Source of the DNA: a virus
Taxonomy: Duplodnaviria > Caudoviricetes
Reading direction: 5' to 3' (one strand)
Length of the DNA: 64,000 bases
Virus record (IMG/VR): IMGVR_UViG_3300031775_000001
Span: 19,812-83,811 of that record
The notes below the pieces were generated by a model. That model was not told the DNA's origin, ran no database searches, and saw only the letters and a program-made list of their open reading frames with translations. Both the position numbers and the translations under genes were made by a program. Shown here piece after piece: positions 4,893-45,421 of the stretch. Position 1 is the first letter of the stretch, and the number at the start of each line of letters is the position of its first letter.

Positions 4893-5217
4893 TATTATTT
4901 GCCTCTATTTCTTCTGCAATTAATTCTATTGCTTCTTCGAGTTTTTTCCACTCAAGCCTTCTATCTATTATTAAATCTTGAATGCGAGCATTCTTGGGGA
5001 CGATTGCTTGTTGTAAATGACCAATCAAGGATATTGACTTAATAAGCCCTTGTTGATAACCTTCTTGCCAATCGGGAGTATTTGCACGAATACTCTTTGG
5101 GTTTATTACGCCTAATTCTTCTGCTCCGTATTTCTTATTTTCATTTGTGTATATTTGTGCTTGTCGTTCATTGCGAACCCCATCCTCATAACCTGCATTG
5201 TAGTCACTTCCACTCAT
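4882..5217 (-). CDS. hypothetical protein
   Basis: Co-oriented ORF; Y..GY..G repeats. Confidence 0.65.
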   Translation of the reverse strand: MSGSDYNAGYEDGVRNERQAQIYTNENKKYGAEELGVINPKSIRANTPDWQEGYQQGLIKSISLIGHLQQAIVPKNARIQDLIIDRRLEWKKLEEAIELIAEEIEANNNEY

Positions 5218-5495
5218 GTTATTTGTTCCTTCTCTATGATAAATTTATTTAAAGTTCCTTCTTCTATATGTAATTCGGATTCTATCATGGGAATTAAGGT
5301 TTCCCCTATTTCTATTTGATTGTCAACGCAAGACAGGGACTCAAGTAATGATACTAGACTTTTCCCTGTATTAGTCCTACTCTCTTGCCCACTAAGAAAT
5401 AAATTATCAGCAGTTACAAGCATAAGATCATCAAGTTTAATAATGATTGCATTTACTGCATCTGAACTACCTCTTATTCCTAGTTTAACCTTCAT
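5214..5495 (-). CDS. hypothetical protein
   Basis: Co-oriented ORF. Confidence 0.65.
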   Translation of the reverse strand: MKVKLGIRGSSDAVNAIIIKLDDLMLVTADNLFLSGQESRTNTGKSLVSLLESLSCVDNQIEIGETLIPMIESELHIEEGTLNKFIIEKEQIT

Positions 5496-19679: not shown

Positions 19680-19877
19680 TTAAGAATTATCAATTTTTTC
19701 TTCCAATAAAGAGGAAATGAATTCTTCTGACTTTTGAAATACTTCCGGGTGATATTCCTTCACCCACTCTAGAACCCATTCGCGGACATAAGAGTTCACT
19801 ACTTCCTCTTTTGATAAGTCTAAACGGTATTTATTTAACTCTTGATTGTTTTCTATTTTCTTCTGATTCATTCCCAT
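19680..19877 (-). CDS. hypothetical protein
   Basis: Co-oriented ORF. Confidence 0.6.
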   Translation of the reverse strand: MGMNQKKIENNQELNKYRLDLSKEEVVNSYVREWVLEWVKEYHPEVFQKSEEFISSLLEEKIDNS

Positions 19878-20505: not shown

Positions 20506-20533
20506 ATTATAAATAAATAAAAAACAAAGTCAA
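20506..20533 (-). promoter_or_regulatory. sigma70-type promoter just past the CRISPR trailer
   Basis: TTGACT-16-TATAAT. Confidence 0.65.
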
Positions 20534-20589: not shown

Positions 20590-20758
20590 GTTTCGTTCTC
20601 CCTCCTTATTTGAAGGAGTGGAAACCCATTACTGGCAATGGATTGCCTCTCAATTAGTTTCGCTCCCCTTCGTATTTGAAGGAGTGGAAACCAGAGGAGT
20701 ACTGCATCAGCATTTCCTATGCGTTTCGCTCCCCTTCGTATTTGAAGGAGTGGAAACC
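20590..20758 (-). CRISPR. CRISPR mini-array: 3 repeats, 2 spacers
   Basis: Minus-sense repeat GGTTTCCACTCCTTCAAATACGAAGGGGAGCGAAAC (36 nt), identical at 20723-20758 and 20657-20692, degenerate terminal copy at 20590-20626; 30-nt spacers; hairpin repeat ending GAAAC. Confidence 0.9.
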
Positions 20759-20864
20759 CGAAGCTCCTAACCCCTTAATATGAAAGGAGATGCCCCTCGA
20801 TAAAATCTAAGGGCTTTTAGTTCCCCACCGAACATGGAAGAACATCAAACTGTAAAAGAACAAA
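20759..20864 (-). ncRNA. putative omegaRNA/tracr-like scaffold (leader) between nuclease stop and array
   Basis: 106-nt structured segment with three predicted hairpins; position equals that of the TnpB omegaRNA. Confidence 0.5.
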
Positions 20865-22073
20865 TTAGCCAAATGCCCTCTGGCGTACAACCTCGGCGGC
20901 ATTAGGGTCTCGAAAAAGATGAGTGCCACATTCCGGGCAATCCCATTCCCTTTCGTCTAGAGTGAGGTTTCTATTAATGAAACCACAACAAGAACAAGTC
21001 ATAGAGGTATATTTAGGATCAACCATCTTACAGGTTTTTCCCTCAAGCTCTGATTTATATTGAATTTGTGAAATAATTTCTGCCAGCCCACCGCCGACAA
21101 GTTTTTTGTTTGTGGCTTTCTTCACTCGCCTTAATGTTTTCTTATCTTCCTCTGTCTTTTCTACTATTTTCTTAACTTCAAAATCTTCAACGGCGATGCC
21201 ATCATTTTCGGAAACTATCTGACGGCTAATGGCATGTCTTGCATGTTTTTTCTTATTTGCTTCATAATGTTTTAGCCTTGCAATCTTAGACTTTATTTTT
21301 CTAAAATTCTTTGACCCCTTTTTGCAAAGAGCCAATTTCTGATTAAGTCTAGCCTGACGAGCTTCAACATCTTTATAGGTCGGAATATGGAACGTATTGC
21401 CCTTATTGTCCGTAACATGATCCTTAATTCCAAAATCTAAACCGATTGTTTTTTTAATTTTAACCTTCTTCTGTATGGTTTGGGATTCTCCAACTATACA
21501 TACATACCATTTTCCGGCTTGATGTTTAATAGTTGCGATTTTGGGCTTTCTTCCATCAAGAGAACGATGCATAATAAGTTTGACCTTATGAGGCTTCACT
21601 CTGTTTGCAGGGTTAGATAAGAAAATATGGCTTTTCTTCAACTTGTCTTCATTTATTTCTAATTTATATGAATCAGTTTGAAAACTATTTGCCAACCTCA
21701 AAGGTTTAGGTTTCAGTCGAGAACCACCACCCTTGGTAAAGAAATTACCTCTGAGTTGATTAGCAATATGATTTAGATCTCTTGAGGGGCATTTTCTTAA
21801 AAGCTCAATACCCCAATTGTTTCCTTCTTCATCCAAATACCTATCCTCAAATCCTTCACCATAAGTTCTCCATCTCGTTATATTCCTATTATAAGCAGTA
21901 AAATTAGGCTTTTTTTCTTCCTCATTGTCCGCTTCAGCCAGAAAGATATACTCATTCTTAACTAATTGAGAAGCTCTGCAACAATCATATAGATATTCTT
22001 CCTGCTCCTTGTTTGGCTTAATTGCGAACTTGAAGGTTTTCAAATTCTTATTGTTTTTCTCTTTGGATTTCAT
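20865..22073 (-). CDS. tnpB: TnpB-like / compact type V (Cas12-like) RNA-guided nuclease, 402 aa
   Basis: FKFAIKPNKEQ N-terminus; RuvC-I IGLDFG, RuvC-II IAVEDF, Zn finger CSCCG...CPECG, RuvC-III RDPNAA; ATG 22073 preferred to TTG 22076. Confidence 0.92.
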   Translation of the reverse strand: MKSKEKNNKNLKTFKFAIKPNKEQEEYLYDCCRASQLVKNEYIFLAEADNEEEKKPNFTAYNRNITRWRTYGEGFEDRYLDEEGNNWGIELLRKCPSRDLNHIANQLRGNFFTKGGGSRLKPKPLRLANSFQTDSYKLEINEDKLKKSHIFLSNPANRVKPHKVKLIMHRSLDGRKPKIATIKHQAGKWYVCIVGESQTIQKKVKIKKTIGLDFGIKDHVTDNKGNTFHIPTYKDVEARQARLNQKLALCKKGSKNFRKIKSKIARLKHYEANKKKHARHAISRQIVSENDGIAVEDFEVKKIVEKTEEDKKTLRRVKKATNKKLVGGGLAEIISQIQYKSELEGKTCKMVDPKYTSMTCSCCGFINRNLTLDEREWDCPECGTHLFRDPNAAEVVRQRAFG

Positions 22074-22130
22074 CAAAGAACTCTAGTTTCGTTCTTAAGA
22101 CCACATGTCGTTGTTTCGTTCATTTGGTAT

Positions 22131-22180
22131 AGATGCCTATTTGAATTAAGCTTTGACTTCCCCTCCGAACAAGGAAGAAG
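22131..22180 (-). repeat. upstream copy of the two-hairpin module duplicated at 20788-20843
   Basis: 22-nt core with 2 mismatches (22158-22179 vs 20821-20842), compensatory changes, shared GGCATCT. Confidence 0.8.
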
Positions 22181-24062: not shown

Positions 24063-24239
24063 TCATTTTTGGTATCTTTCGAGGAAAGTGCATAATGAAC
24101 AATACATAGCCATCAAAAAAGAAAAAAAGAATAAAATACTATCATTTAGACCAAAAAATATTGAAACCGACAAATTTACAAACACCAATACGAAAAGGAG
24201 TTTCCCTTTGTTATTTAAACGATGCCAAGAAACAATCAT
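24063..24239 (-). CDS. 58-aa two-TM membrane protein
   Basis: Manual translation (MIVSWHRLNNKGKLLFVLVFVNLSVSIFFGL...); ATGA overlap with the sigma gene. Confidence 0.55.
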   Translation of the reverse strand: MIVSWHRLNNKGKLLFVLVFVNLSVSIFFGLNDSILFFFSFLMAMYCSLCTFLERYQK

Positions 24240-24970
24240 TCCGGAACGTAATGGTTTTTATTTAAATTTATTTCTTTCGGAAGTCGGGAAGTTTTTTTTA
24301 TTTGTTTTATTCTGCATTTGTCTGCCTTATTGAAAATCCCGGCCAAATATTTAGCCGACTCATTTGCTTCTGAAATATCATTTTTATTCTCATCCTCAAC
24401 TGTCATGCCTTTATAATGATGTCTTAATTTTTCAAAAATTCTAATTTTGCAGATATTAACTGCTTGTCTAGTTATTGAATGTTTGGTTGCTATTTCTTTT
24501 TCGCTCTTACCTTTTAACATCATTCCAAAGGTATCCTTTTCAATTTCCGTCAATATATGAGAATATTTTTTAATAATATCAACAATAACCTTCAGTTTTG
24601 CACCTTCATCAAAGAATGCAACATCTTCCTCTACTCCTATTTGATCGCATATCCAATCAAACAAAGAAACTTGCCCATCATCAGTTTCATATGTCCCGTC
24701 AGCAAGATTTTTAGAATAATGAAATTCTTTTATGCCCTGCCAGTTCGTTACATTCCTTGCATACGCATATGCCCATTTAGTGAAGTCTGCCTTAGAGAAA
24801 TCATAGCCTAATTTATCAAAAAACTTTTGTTTCGTTTTTATTAAATTAAAATTAACTTGACCTACCATATCATCAACGGTAGAACTCGCATTTTGGGAAA
24901 TATGCTTTCCTACTATTTTCCTAAGGTCTTCCTGATACTCTACTAAAAAATCATCAAATCTAGATTTCAT
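24236..24970 (-). CDS. phage RNA polymerase sigma factor (ECF/sigma70-like)
   Basis: Region 2 DDMVGQVNFNL...FTKWAYAYARN; region 4 LTEIEK...KSEKEIATKHSITRQAVNICK. Confidence 0.75.
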   Translation of the reverse strand: MKSRFDDFLVEYQEDLRKIVGKHISQNASSTVDDMVGQVNFNLIKTKQKFFDKLGYDFSKADFTKWAYAYARNVTNWQGIKEFHYSKNLADGTYETDDGQVSLFDWICDQIGVEEDVAFFDEGAKLKVIVDIIKKYSHILTEIEKDTFGMMLKGKSEKEIATKHSITRQAVNICKIRIFEKLRHHYKGMTVEDENKNDISEANESAKYLAGIFNKADKCRIKQIKKTSRLPKEINLNKNHYVPE

Positions 24971-26189
24971 TTTCTTTTATAAATTTAAATAACCTAACGT
25001 AATTGGAAATTGGCATATTAAGATACTTCGCCGCCTGTAGGGCGACTTTATTATTTTGATGATAGGCTTCCAATATTGAGCTTTTCATCTCTTTTGCATA
25101 TTTAATTCTATTTCTTTTCCTCGCAGACAACCTATTGGCGAGCCTAATCTCATCAACACTATCCAAAAAATCTCTTTTAAAATCAGGATAAGCCCTACCC
25201 ATTTGATTCATTGTTCTTCTTAGGGTGTTTACCGCCAATCCGAATTCTTTTGCAACAGATTTTAATAAGTGATTATTCCTTTTTAAGCTTTCCTCTAATT
25301 TAGGTTTTAGCTTCTCCAGCCTTAAAGAAAGCCTTATTTTGTTATTCTTTTTTCGAGTTTCTAGCATCTTCTTTCTAACTTCGGGGTCTTTTAGGTTGGA
25401 CGGAATTAAGTTCCCATTCTTTTTCCTTGTCTCCAAGGCTTTAATCTTCCCCATCTCTAATTTCTCCGGATCATAAACAGGGTCTCTAGCGGGAGGATTT
25501 GGGTATCTTTTTTTCCAATTAATTCCTTCAAAAAAAATCATCCTGTTCATCAAGGATCTATGACTAATGCGAAGTATATCTTTCGCGTGATTAACATTTC
25601 CTTTGGTTCCATCCATTACAAAGAGTATTGATTCTAATTCTTTTTCTGCGACCTCAGAATCATTATAGTTCGTCCTCCCTCTCTTGTCCGAATGGGATTT
25701 CCCGTATTTGCTTAAAGCGGAAAACCAATTTTTTGTTTTATTTTTGTTGTGTTCTCTTCCGGCTTCTATGAAAATCCTTATCTCTTCATCGCTTTTTTTA
25801 TAATTTTTGGGGGGAGACCAATTTCTTCGACCTACCTGACCTTCAAACCTCTTTTTTTCGATTTTAAAGAGCTTATCAAATTCATTGGGGAACGCCGTAC
25901 TTCTTACCGCATCCCAGAACGCAATTCTACTTGAGCCTACAGAATTTTTTCCATATTCTTTATGTAGGATGTATATATGAGACGCTTTCCTTTTTGAGAA
26001 ATTTTTATTTTCTGAAAGTTTTAAATCTAATATATTAAGAGCTAATTTAGCTGATTTAGCCTTAAGAAAAACTTTAAAATCTCTTTCGCTTTTATCTTTA
26101 TAACATTCAGTATAATGAAGCACCCAATATTGATTATGAGCAAATTTCTTCCTAAACGATCTAAACTGAATATTTTTTCCTTTTCTCAT
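24960..26189 (-). CDS. basic protein with three Fis-type HTH motifs, paralog of 26186..27403
   Basis: GNVNHAKDILRISHRSL; NHLLKSVAKEFGLAVNTL; ILEAYHQNNKVALQAAKYLNM. Confidence 0.65.
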   Translation of the reverse strand: MRKGKNIQFRSFRKKFAHNQYWVLHYTECYKDKSERDFKVFLKAKSAKLALNILDLKLSENKNFSKRKASHIYILHKEYGKNSVGSSRIAFWDAVRSTAFPNEFDKLFKIEKKRFEGQVGRRNWSPPKNYKKSDEEIRIFIEAGREHNKNKTKNWFSALSKYGKSHSDKRGRTNYNDSEVAEKELESILFVMDGTKGNVNHAKDILRISHRSLMNRMIFFEGINWKKRYPNPPARDPVYDPEKLEMGKIKALETRKKNGNLIPSNLKDPEVRKKMLETRKKNNKIRLSLRLEKLKPKLEESLKRNNHLLKSVAKEFGLAVNTLRRTMNQMGRAYPDFKRDFLDSVDEIRLANRLSARKRNRIKYAKEMKSSILEAYHQNNKVALQAAKYLNMPISNYVRLFKFIKENEI

Positions 26190-27403
26190 TGAAGCCCCTC
26201 CCTAATGTCTTTAACGAAATTGCGAAAAGTACCTGGGCTCATGCCTAAATACTTAGAAGCTTGGCGAGAATTTCCGTCAAATTGATGATAAGCCTCAAGG
26301 ATATTATGCTTGCAGGAATTCAATTGATGCTCCCTCCTCTTTTTTTTGGCAAAAGAATGATTTTCATTTCTTTTTTTATCCTTCACTTCGTCAAATTCTT
26401 TTTTAAAATTGGGGTAGAAAATCTTTAAGTCTCTGATTACATTAGAAACCCATGCGACACTCATGCCCAACTCCTCGCTTGTCCTGATTTGATGAAAATT
26501 ATTTTTTCTTAGAGCATCCAAAAAAGGAGTTTTTATCTTTTTTAAATTTTCCTCTTTCTTTTTTCTCCATGTCTTTGCTCTTGTTTTTTTAGCTTTATTC
26601 AATACCTCTTCTTTGTTCTTGAAATTAAAAAACTTATGCCCACGAGACTTAAGTGTTTTGACCGCCTCTATATGACCGATCCTTTGGGCTTCAGTATTCT
26701 TTTTTCTCTCTCTGGTTCCGGTTAAAGGATATTCTTTATTCCAATCAACTCCGTCAAACTTTTGCAAATAACGCCTGAAGGCAGATGAACCAATGCCTAA
26801 CTCGTCACCGCAAGCACTTTTATTCCCCTTGTTTTTTTTCATTAACCCTTTAAGGAATTTAGTTTCCATTCCTTTGAAGGTAAGATCCTTTAAAGAAACA
26901 TAAGAATTTTCTCCAAATCGTTTTTTTGCTTCTGGGCTTTTGGGCAAAACACAACCTCTCTTTTTGTCAGAAAACTTTTTTAATCTGGCAATTCTCTCAT
27001 TATTTAATTCTTTGGAAGGGCGCTGTTCCCCCCTTCCCATTGGATGCAAATAACTATATTTCTTATCTTTTTTAAGTTTGAATATTTTATTAAATTCATT
27101 TGGGAAGCTTATCTTCCTTATGTGATCCCAAGTCGAAATAGAGGAACTTAATTTAACCCCGGAAAATCGACTAAATCCCTTATGAAAAAAATAAAATAAT
27201 ATTGAGATTAACTTGATATTCTCATTCTCTTCTGAGATTCTTTTTAGCAGAATTTCTTTAGCCATCTCCCCGGACCTAGCCTTAATGACAGTTCGGTAAT
27301 TCCCTAATAATTTCCCACCGAGCATTTCCGAAAAATGCACAACCCAATATTGGTTGCTAGAAAATTTCTTAAATCTATATTTGTTTTGAATGTTGGATTT
27401 CAT
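26186..27403 (-). CDS. basic protein with three Fis-type HTH motifs, paralog of 24960..26189
   Basis: GNKSACGDELGIGSSAF; NFHQIRTSEELGMSVAW; ILEAYHQFDGNSRQASKYLGMS. Confidence 0.65.
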   Translation of the reverse strand: MKSNIQNKYRFKKFSSNQYWVVHFSEMLGGKLLGNYRTVIKARSGEMAKEILLKRISEENENIKLISILFYFFHKGFSRFSGVKLSSSISTWDHIRKISFPNEFNKIFKLKKDKKYSYLHPMGRGEQRPSKELNNERIARLKKFSDKKRGCVLPKSPEAKKRFGENSYVSLKDLTFKGMETKFLKGLMKKNKGNKSACGDELGIGSSAFRRYLQKFDGVDWNKEYPLTGTRERKKNTEAQRIGHIEAVKTLKSRGHKFFNFKNKEEVLNKAKKTRAKTWRKKKEENLKKIKTPFLDALRKNNFHQIRTSEELGMSVAWVSNVIRDLKIFYPNFKKEFDEVKDKKRNENHSFAKKKRREHQLNSCKHNILEAYHQFDGNSRQASKYLGMSPGTFRNFVKDIREGLQ

Positions 27404-44407: not shown

Positions 44408-45421
44408 TCAACAAATCTCGTAAGAAACATCCTTTAGGTAATCAAGTGATTTCCCTCCGGCATAACTTATGGAAGACCTCAAGTCTTCTTCTATTTCATT
44501 TATTTTAGAAAGAAATGTCATACTTGAAACTGGTATGTTTTTCATTACCCCTTCTATATGTGAACTATCCCCTTTGTTGTGTACCGAAGCGGAACCGAAA
44601 TAAGCTTTATGCGGACAACCTTCGATAATAATAGTTTCCGCTGGGCTATCGAGACACTGCGCAAAAAGACTACCCGACATCACCATGTCAGCACCAGCAA
44701 CTAATGCCTTGGCTATATCTCCATTGCAAGAGACTCCACCATCTGCTATAATGGGAACTCTTGAAGGCAAATCAAAGTCATTTTTTATATTTCCAGTAGC
44801 AATAGATATGAAATCACCCGAAGATGTCATAGCTGAATGAGCGCAGTTCTTGACGCAACTAAACATAGGAATGGTAAATCCCGTCTTGTCTTTTGTTGTG
44901 CAAGGGCTACCCTGACCTATGCCTACTTTGATTGCATCTGCACCCCAAGAATATAAATCCCTAACGCCTTCTTGAGTTGCTACATTACCGGCAATAAGAA
45001 ATGATTCAGGAAGTTTTTCCTTTATGAATTCTATCATTTCCTTCATGGAAGAACTATGGCCATGTGCAATATCTATTGTAATATAGTCTATGCTTAGCCT
45101 AGAAGAAGCAGCATCTCTAATAAAATCAAAATCTTTGGGCTGAACGCCTATACTTATTGACACATATTTCCATTGGTTTCTCTCTGCATTCTCTATAAAT
45201 TTCCTAAGGTCAATCCCAAAGCGGTGCATTACGTAAAAGTAACCATTTTGGGATAATTTATAACATAAATCTTCATTAATTACAGACTTCATATTGGCGG
45301 GAATAATAGGACACTTAAAAGTCCTACCCCCCAATGAGACTGAAGTGTCACAATTGGATCTGCTTTCACAGTCCGAAAACTTCGGAACTAAACATACGTC
45401 TGAATATTTAAGCAATTTCAT
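44408..45421 (-). CDS. guaC: GMP reductase (IMPDH/GMPR family)
   Basis: PANM, IDIAHGHS, IAGNVAT, KVGIGQGSPCTT, IIADGG; no CBS domains. Confidence 0.88.
   Translation of the reverse strand: MKLLKYSDVCLVPKFSDCESRSNCDTSVSLGGRTFKCPIIPANMKSVINEDLCYKLSQNGYFYVMHRFGIDLRKFIENAERNQWKYVSISIGVQPKDFDFIRDAASSRLSIDYITIDIAHGHSSSMKEMIEFIKEKLPESFLIAGNVATQEGVRDLYSWGADAIKVGIGQGSPCTTKDKTGFTIPMFSCVKNCAHSAMTSSGDFISIATGNIKNDFDLPSRVPIIADGGVSCNGDIAKALVAGADMVMSGSLFAQCLDSPAETIIIEGCPHKAYFGSASVHNKGDSSHIEGVMKNIPVSSMTFLSKINEIEEDLRSSISYAGGKSLDYLKDVSYEIC

Follow-up and report, generated by a model that had tools for sequence, protein, structure and literature searches.

We analysed a stretch of 64,000 nucleotides (nt), here called the window, from a viral genome of the Caudoviricetes (Duplodnaviria; IMG/VR record IMGVR_UViG_3300031775_000001, positions 19,812 to 83,811). 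Its minus strand carries a gene for a TnpB-family RNA-guided nuclease, a short array of the CRISPR type (short palindromic repeats that are clustered and regularly interspaced) and, between the two, a conserved module that is predicted to form the scaffold of a guide RNA. The locus consists of the following parts, in which SL1 and SL2 denote two scaffold hairpins:

20865..22073, minus strand: gene for the TnpB-family RNA-guided nuclease (402 amino acids, aa), with RuvC residues D213/E296/D389 and a CxxC..CxxC zinc ribbon; assigned from family profiles, conservation and an AlphaFold2 (AF2) model
20845..20864, minus strand: conserved 5' box of the guide module, GTTCTTTnnCAGTTTrAT, immediately past the stop codon; 5' border of every duplicated module in relatives
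20820..20843, minus strand: scaffold hairpin SL1 (UUCUUCC..GUUCG..GGGGAA), supported by compensatory changes
20792..20814, minus strand: scaffold hairpin SL2 with a conserved UAAAAG linker in front, from folds and pair counts
20759..20791, minus strand: anti-repeat section of the scaffold, predicted to pair with nearly all of repeat 1 via a UUCG-type loop, which corresponds to a natural single-guide layout
20723..20758, minus strand: repeat 1 (36 nt, 3' end GAGCGAAAC)
20693..20722, minus strand: spacer 1 (30 nt; no target match in the collections searched)
20657..20692, minus strand: repeat 2, equal to repeat 1
20627..20656, minus strand: spacer 2 (30 nt; no target match in the collections searched)
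20590..20626, minus strand: degenerate terminal repeat (37 nt, 3' end GAACGAAAC); the flank behind it is common to strain L079
22084..22184, minus strand: second module, shortened and located upstream of the gene (SL1' and SL2', GAACGAAAC, 18 nt, GAACGAAAC), supported by compensatory changes and ending 14 nt before the start codon

The nuclease has 402 aa when read from an ATG start codon and 403 aa from a TTG upstream of it. A first, sequence-only reading of the window had described a protein with a full RuvC triad and a CxxC-CxxC zinc finger. Translation, Pfam, NCBIfam and the comparison with relatives all agree with this description. The motifs are GLDFG (D213), VED (E296), RDPNAA (D389) and a zinc ribbon CSCC...CPEC; in an alignment with 12 relatives D213, E296, D389, C360/C363 and C379/C382 are unchanged, such that triad and zinc ribbon are intact. 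Pfam matches were obtained for PF07282 (Cas12f1-like_TNB, 68 bits) and PF01385 (OrfB_IS605, 61.8 bits). With the NCBIfam profile NF040570 (guided_TnpB) the protein scored 182.6 bits against a cut-off of 100 over residues 14-398, which places it in the TnpB family; the score for NF038281 (IS200_TnpB), 138.6, was below the cut-off of 425.

The AF2 model, built from a shallow alignment of 12 sequences, had a mean predicted local distance difference test score of 79. A Foldseek search with this model ranked ISDra2 TnpB first (8h1j; E-value 6e-18, template modelling scores 0.65/0.71) followed by ISFba1 TnpB (8iaz). Cas12f came next, with lower ranks for LaTranC (rank 17), Cas12p, Cas12m and Cas-lambda. 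The predicted fold is a compact WED-REC-RuvC-TNB arrangement with a REC domain that is not enlarged, as is typical of TnpB. In the comparison of sequence profiles, Cas12n (9j09) and ISDra2 TnpB are about equally near to the C-terminal RuvC half, and LaTranC is clearly weaker (E-values of 1e-33 for ISDra2 TnpB vs 2e-21 for LaTranC). For the N-terminal half, no sequence alignment to ISDra2 or ISFba1 TnpB was possible. The protein ends directly behind the last RuvC motif, the ISDra2-type C-terminal domain being absent, and the N-terminal HTH_OrfB_IS605 match that ordinary TnpBs show is missing in every clade member. A search of the ESM Atlas returned generic TnpB clusters only. Overall, the data support the earlier view that the protein is nearer to TnpB than to evolved Cas12, and its predicted fold is closest to that of ISDra2 TnpB.

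The array lies on the strand of the gene, 106 nt past its stop codon, and comprises two identical 36-nt repeats, one degenerate 37-nt repeat at the distal end and two 30-nt spacers. Its coordinates and orientation are those of the sequence-only reading, as is the folding of the repeat, which is self-complementary at its ends (GTTTC/GAAAC) and in its core (CTCCTTC/GAAGGGG) and terminates in GAAAC. An exact 35-mer of the repeat has 2 copies in the window compared with 0.00 expected from shuffles, and no occurrence of the exact repeat was found in IMG/VR. A stretch at 20645-20659, made up of the last 3 nt of repeat 2 and the first 12 nt of spacer 2, is identical in 14/15 positions to the antisense of the nuclease gene (21960-21974). 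This match is probably due to chance and is too short for cleavage. Right behind the array and facing the next gene there is a strong sigma-70-like promoter at 20506-20533 (TTGACT-16-TATAAT, 11/12 positions); promoters of a similar TTGACA type are found behind the arrays in most relatives.

Comparing modules across relatives revealed a homologous segment of about 110 nt ahead of every array. It is composed of a GTTCTTTnnCAGTTTAAT-like box, SL1 with a GTTCG-type loop, the UAAAAG linker, SL2 and the section that would pair with the first repeat. At loci with two modules the homology sets in precisely with the box, which directly follows the stop codon and lies outside the open reading frame (ORF). 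The module therefore does not overlap the 3' end of the nuclease ORF, as the omegaRNA of mobile insertion sequence (IS) elements does. The box occurs only once in the window and we thus assign it to the module; the idea that it is a general phage promoter was rejected. Some upstream modules of relatives have a sigma-70-like promoter just 5' of the box, as read directly from the sequence. At 20868-20884 the last codons of the nuclease gene can form a terminator-like hairpin, of which the T-rich box is the tail.

Among 15 modules, 5 of the 9 base pairs of SL1 show compensatory changes. Minimum-energy folds of five divergent modules all provided SL1, SL2 and then a long stem, in which about 30 nt of the scaffold pair with nearly the entire first repeat. 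When the full structure of scaffold and repeat 1 was placed on the alignment, 80% of the cells were paired compared with 71% in shuffles, 13 pairs were compensatory, and a slide control had its maximum at 0. For scaffold:repeat duplexes of 10 module types the mean energy was -21.3 kcal/mol for cognate vs -17.3 kcal/mol for non-cognate combinations (permutation p 0.0005). The duplexes of the relatives L085 (12+5 base pairs, bp) and L084 (8+6 bp) are far longer than the hairpin of the repeat itself, such that the complementarity is more than a by-product of scaffold and repeat both copying one palindrome. A scaffold resembling a tracrRNA (trans-activating CRISPR RNA), with an anti-repeat complementary to the repeat, is also what characterizes the TranC and type V-U systems discussed below, the sequences that can be compared here being few and related. 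No Rfam family matches the guide module. The picture suggested by these sequences is that of a transposon right-end RNA whose last hairpin may have opened into an anti-repeat and a repeat, with the first unit still fused as a natural single guide.

Relatives were identified by protein search, with contigs taken from ENA, JGI, IMG/VR and Tara marine assemblies. A tight family of 97%, 88%, 51% and 46% identical proteins (396-402 aa) was obtained together with a sister group whose proteins measure about 450-470 aa and are 35-40% identical. Similar arrays are carried by about 10 lineages (35-96% identity), all of them marine phage or metagenome contigs. Given enough flank, the gene is always followed by repeats of about 36 nt with a period of 65-66 nt, and arrays are often also found ahead of the gene; several assemblies stop within the first repeat. 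The 3' ends of the repeats differ by protein clade (GCGAAAC, GCAAAAC, CTCAAAC, CTAAAAC), while the repeat ends are always complementary and the variable segment follows directly. The array thus adjoins the gene and is kept in homologs, as in TranC and type V-U systems. That it belongs to the nuclease, as the sequence-only reading had supposed, is borne out by the cognate arrays of the homologs and by the co-variation of repeat and scaffold; the opposite outcome, homologs that are never linked to such a repeat, clearly does not apply. The locus had also been called nascent and the result of a recent transition. This is not supported, since an array link shared down to 35% identity is old in the lineage.

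Three family members are located on IMG/VR viral contigs, and the locus is present in marine metagenomes from at least 10 studies. The protein search found no family member among 185,579 species genomes, and INPHARED contained no phage close to the window. Strict synteny of the locus across the clade was rejected, given that the AAA+ gene changes sides and that there is no homology between the sigma-like neighbours. The AAA+ proteins of the window and of the phage carrying locus L008 share 53% identity. A distinct TnpB (P0016, 387 aa, HTH_OrfB_IS605 present, 38% identical over the RuvC half) was found on a 65-kilobase (kb) contig (L129:3950-5310, ENA GROS21-1 scaffold_276). Its gene is followed by 19 copies of a different 36-nt repeat at an irregular spacing of 56-99 nt, seemingly a second lineage of array-linked TnpBs among marine sequences that is separate from the present one. 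No array accompanies a further relative, P0021 (L132).

The range of the sequence-only reading extended to 22180 because a second, shortened scaffold copy sits upstream of the gene. This short upstream module is kept in the 88% and 96% identical relatives and is complete, with an array of its own, in the more distant L084, L085, L087, L007, L012 and L083. At some loci three or four modules occur, including gene-less ones of another repeat type. L007 has a gene-less module of the window type at 4919-5330, and further extra modules are found in L013, L082 and L004. Whether the gene-less module L007-B had kept a remnant of the gene's 3' end was considered and rejected, the homology beginning at the box. 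Whole or decayed modules of the window type (GCGAAAC) that have no matching gene nearby lie at L007:4919-5330, L007:2640-2950, L012:2340-2940 and L083:1600-2345, and the nucleases beside them have repeats of their own that end in CTCAAAC or CTAAAAC. Possible explanations for such foreign-type modules are that one protein reads two scaffold types, that a second nuclease is encoded elsewhere in the genome, or that they act as decoy or hijack modules.

The spacers have a defined length and are highly variable in content. A length of exactly 30 nt is seen in 39 of the 93 spacer-like intervals, and the remainder mostly measure 29-31 nt; a minor class of 14-23 nt accompanies shortened or degenerate repeats, mainly at distal ends. 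All long spacers are unique (60/60). This finding, together with the absence of TnpA from the parts checked, also led us to reject a miniature transposon, inserted after GAAAC, as the source of the units. In strain L079, whose gene is 95.5% identical and which has the same flank past the terminal repeat, the array has 6 repeats and 5 spacers, none of them in common with the window. Likewise, no spacer is shared between L084 and L091 (96.5% identical genes) or between L087 and L092 (96.7%). Spacer content thus changes much faster than the gene, because strains with 95-97% identical genes share no spacers. Smaller steps are seen between L081 and L086 (99.6% identical), in which one 30-nt spacer is exchanged and one unit is present in only one of the two, and between L007 and L008, which differ by duplication and loss of units. 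Exactly the array of the window was recovered on DNA contigs of two other, independent marine studies (X3, X5), and the L079 version in a third run.

Searches for spacer targets found none. Exact 24-mers of both window spacers had no target in IMG/VR. A blastn comparison of the window, L007, L084 and L083 arrays with 50,697 phage records returned noise and similarity of the tnpB gene only, and 149 spacer-like pieces compared with the window and 127 loci matched only the arrays themselves. Two contigs touch on expression. A 151-nt contig (X15), from a library only guessed to be RNA, extends across the scaffold and repeat 1 of an L079-type array and includes its first spacer, and a metatranscriptome contig (X19) covers 151 nt within the nuclease gene. 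We did not take them as evidence of expression, because such contigs neither show ends nor exclude DNA.

The gene content of the window supports the phage setting that had been assumed before. It is large-phage-like with all genes on one strand and includes a DNA polymerase, a DnaB-type helicase, a primase, a PD-(D/E)XK nuclease, a Clp-like ATPase, a tail-fibre match and many family-less small ORFs. The sequence-only reading had found no tnpA, cas1 or cas2. This stands for the window ORFs scanned, among which none was seen, and leaves aside some small ORFs outside that scan. Cas1 and Cas2, the hallmark of canonical adaptive CRISPR-Cas, were absent from the relatives G001 and G002, and no Y1_Tnp was found in the 96.7-kb relative G001 (69% complete according to CheckV). 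The gene for the TNB-domain nuclease is single-copy in G001, unlike that of a mobile IS200/IS605 or IS607 element.

Systems of this kind have been published since 2023, namely V-U6 to V-U45 (2023), TranC (2025), and CauTranC9 and Cas12r (2026). V-U6 to V-U45 are 40 TnpB branches that are steadily linked to downstream arrays lacking cas1/2/4; many of them have been seen only in metagenomes, and their arrays are thought to come from duplicated omegaRNA segments (Altae-Tran et al., PNAS 2023, PMC10691335). The present locus is likewise a TnpB branch with a downstream array for which no cas1/2 was found, but arrays in V-U6 to V-U45 are almost always downstream, while an upstream module is an additional feature of many members here. 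TranC systems are transposon-CRISPR intermediates (Jin et al., Cell 2025;188:6283, doi 10.1016/j.cell.2025.09.004). As far as PMC13565253, bioRxiv 10.64898/2026.03.27.714800 and PDB entries 9jfo/9jfq describe them, they share with our locus a TnpB-derived RuvC nuclease of near TnpB size that adjoins a CRISPR array without adaptation genes, and a guide RNA with the look of a transposon's right-end RNA that was divided into repeat-spacer units and a tracr-like scaffold. Differences from TranC as described there are that scaffold and first repeat have stayed joined here and that whole modules lie on both sides of the gene. In addition, LaTranC is a weaker match to the 402-aa protein than ISDra2 TnpB.

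The two systems from 2026 are, like ours, encoded by phages. CauTranC9, which belongs to TranC clade 9 and stems from a Caudoviricetes genome, is active, uses a compact protospacer-adjacent motif (PAM) and has spacers that match phages; proteins of this clade have a mean length of 414 aa and lack both the ISDra2-type C-terminal domain and an enlarged REC/WED (bioRxiv 10.64898/2026.03.27.714800). Compared by description, size and domains are similar to those found here, the array is short as well (5 repeats in CauTranC9), and cas accessory genes are missing in both. However, the reported repeat has 38 bp vs 36 bp here, and targets are known there while none were found here. Cas12r of Thermus Lalka phages is active, too, with spacers that match integrative elements (Trofimova et al., bioRxiv 10.64898/2026.04.20.719267). 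Its arrays have been proposed to use host type I-E adaptation, and its terminal repeat plus flank also gives a guide (bioRxiv 10.64898/2026.04.20.719267). Similarities comprise a TnpB-like phage effector followed by a short array of degenerate repeats, no adaptation genes, spacers that differ between close phages, and a proposed role in conflicts between mobile elements. Nonetheless, the locus is not a Cas12r: that protein has 564 aa, 29-bp I-E-like repeats, spacers of 31-33 nt and no tracrRNA and comes from a thermophile, in contrast to the 402 aa, 36-nt repeats and conserved scaffold of about 110 nt with anti-repeat observed here.

Two further groups frame the comparison. ISDra2 and ISFba1 TnpB (PDB 8h1j, 8exa, 8iaz) are the top structural matches; size and the layout of RuvC and zinc ribbon agree, and their guide, too, sits 3' of an RNA that is structured and has its template downstream of the gene. 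Unlike these transposon proteins, the present system has no detected TnpA, no identifiable transposon ends, a single gene copy, several guides instead of one, and an RNA module that begins past the stop codon and not within the ORF. Virus-borne mini-arrays that use host Cas proteins possess 1-2 spacers and no adaptation genes, and their usual role is competition between related viruses (PMC11656645). They resemble our array in having few spacers in a virus genome without adaptation genes, but they carry the host repeat and no effector of their own, whereas our array is joined to the scaffold of a neighbouring nuclease that co-varies with it.

From these data we consider it fairly probable that the locus encodes an RNA-guided nuclease system which derives from TnpB, was domesticated, is carried by a phage and belongs to the transposon-CRISPR-intermediate type (TranC or type V-U-like). 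By analogy with CauTranC9 and Cas12r it probably serves conflicts between mobile elements. The data show the anatomy of the locus and its conservation, the covariation of the RNA, the turnover of spacers and a TnpB-like predicted fold, while RNA processing, DNA cleavage, targets and the mode of spacer acquisition are inferred. The mechanism would be as follows. The guide module, starting at the conserved box just past the stop codon, would be transcribed with or after the nuclease gene. Its RNA would fold into SL1, SL2 and the anti-repeat of about 30 nt on repeat 1 and thereby provide a natural single guide whose 3' end ...GAGCGAAAC is followed by spacer 1. Later repeat-spacer units may be cut out and pair in trans with scaffold copies in the fashion of a CRISPR RNA (crRNA) and a tracrRNA. 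The 402-aa protein would bind the guide RNA and cut, with its RuvC site, spacer-matching DNA beside a 5' motif. The phage could turn such a system on other mobile elements or on co-infecting phages.

A number of observations weigh against this scheme. No protospacer was found for any spacer in the collections searched, such that neither a PAM or transposon-associated motif nor a biological target can be derived. The use against competitors or host DNA that the sequence-only reading suggested stays conjectural for this reason. Repeats within the single array of L079 are just 69-92% alike, and many relatives have shortened units with spacers of 14-23 nt, which is untypical of arrays built by Cas1-Cas2. 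The last scaffold hairpin is repeat-like, and the complementarity of anti-repeat and repeat may partly reflect common descent, which applies to the module of the window type; the covariation tests are built on few, related sequences. Furthermore, repeat 1 fills the anti-repeat in cis, and the use of spacer 2 requires processing or free scaffold. Finally, two contigs from different samples (L002, L003) with a 97% identical gene have neither scaffold nor array. They split from the window about 10 nt past the stop codon, within the box (L002:2091-2266), and continue with unrelated sequence containing a convergent ORF. Either the module was lost in that strain or the assembly jumped at the repeated box.

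The main rival explanation, which we hold to be unlikely, is an ordinary omegaRNA-guided TnpB with a single working guide, provided by the first unit or by the sequence past the terminal repeat. The array would then be a duplicated and decaying omegaRNA 3' end, produced by slippage or recombination, and its spacers inert filler. Such an origin would fit the heterogeneous and shortened repeats, the irregular intervals of 14-23 nt, the duplication and decay of whole modules around the gene, the presence of the same unit twice in tandem in L007 and the lack of adaptation genes in the parts checked; the terminal repeat with its flank also resembles a native layout of omegaRNA and guide. Decaying copies do not, however, account for a sharp spacer mode at 30 nt and a 66-nt period in many independent lineages, nor for 60/60 unique long spacers that are wholly replaced between 95-97% identical strains. 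Anti-repeat complementarity that extends past the palindromic stem arms (e.g. 12 bp in L085) argues in the same direction, as do the lack of a detected TnpA, the single gene copy and the start of the module after, not within, the ORF.

Repeats of 36 nt with spacers of 30 nt have the dimensions of type II, V-A and VI-B arrays. This fit would also be obtained if the repeats were copies of host CRISPR repeats, the array being built by host Cas1-Cas2 and read by host Cas proteins besides or instead of the phage TnpB. The exact 30-nt ruler calls for some explanation, and for the phage Cas12r arrays the use of host I-E adaptation was proposed on the same grounds. Nevertheless, we judge a virus-borne mini-array of this sort quite improbable here, as the repeat is fused and complementary to the TnpB scaffold and varies with the TnpB clade. 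A regulator or decoy in place of a cutter, with RNAs that guide binding without cleavage in the manner of TldR or Cas12m, or with gene-less modules that soak up or hijack the nuclease of a competitor phage, seems highly improbable to us. Gene-less foreign-repeat modules do lie beside the nuclease in L007, L012 and L083, and the locus is near phage sigma and helix-turn-helix (HTH) regulator genes, but RuvC triad and zinc ribbon are unchanged across the clade, and the turnover of spacers suits changing enemies better than fixed regulation.

Within the transposon-CRISPR-intermediate type, some features may be particular to this clade: modules on both sides of the gene, gene-less foreign-type modules, a module that begins beyond the ORF, and 30-nt spacers that are quickly renewed while no adaptation genes were found. 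A bolder proposal, which we regard as doubtful, is that the clade forms an undescribed, independent TnpB-to-CRISPR lineage in which the whole module duplicates on both gene sides, 30-nt spacers are renewed without an adaptation gene, by Cas1-independent capture or by exchange of units between co-infecting phages, and gene-less foreign-type modules hijack or decoy a rival nuclease.

If active, the 402-aa protein would be among the smallest RNA-guided nucleases that use an array, and its single guide, fused by nature, could be taken over for engineering as it stands. Several stages also coexist within the clade: terminal hairpins that are not split, an anti-repeat fused to a repeat, complete arrays, and modules in decay or without a gene. 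The step from omegaRNA to tracrRNA and crRNA can thus be traced in one phage lineage. It further sharpens the question of how 30-nt spacers are rapidly replaced in phages, with likely hosts among marine bacteria, in which no adaptation genes were found.

Several other genes were noted in passing. An upstream operon of the window (24236-27403) encodes two paralogs of about 405 aa with a Fis-type HTH and a 244-aa GerE/sigma-like protein and is kept in L001; the sigma-like neighbours of distant relatives (Sigma70_r2) are not homologous to it. At 44408-45421 the window encodes a protein of the IMP dehydrogenase/GMP reductase family (Pfam IMPDH, E-value 1e-59), an auxiliary gene of nucleotide metabolism. 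In the relative L004, genes for dihydrofolate reductase and AdoMet decarboxylase adjoin the nuclease.

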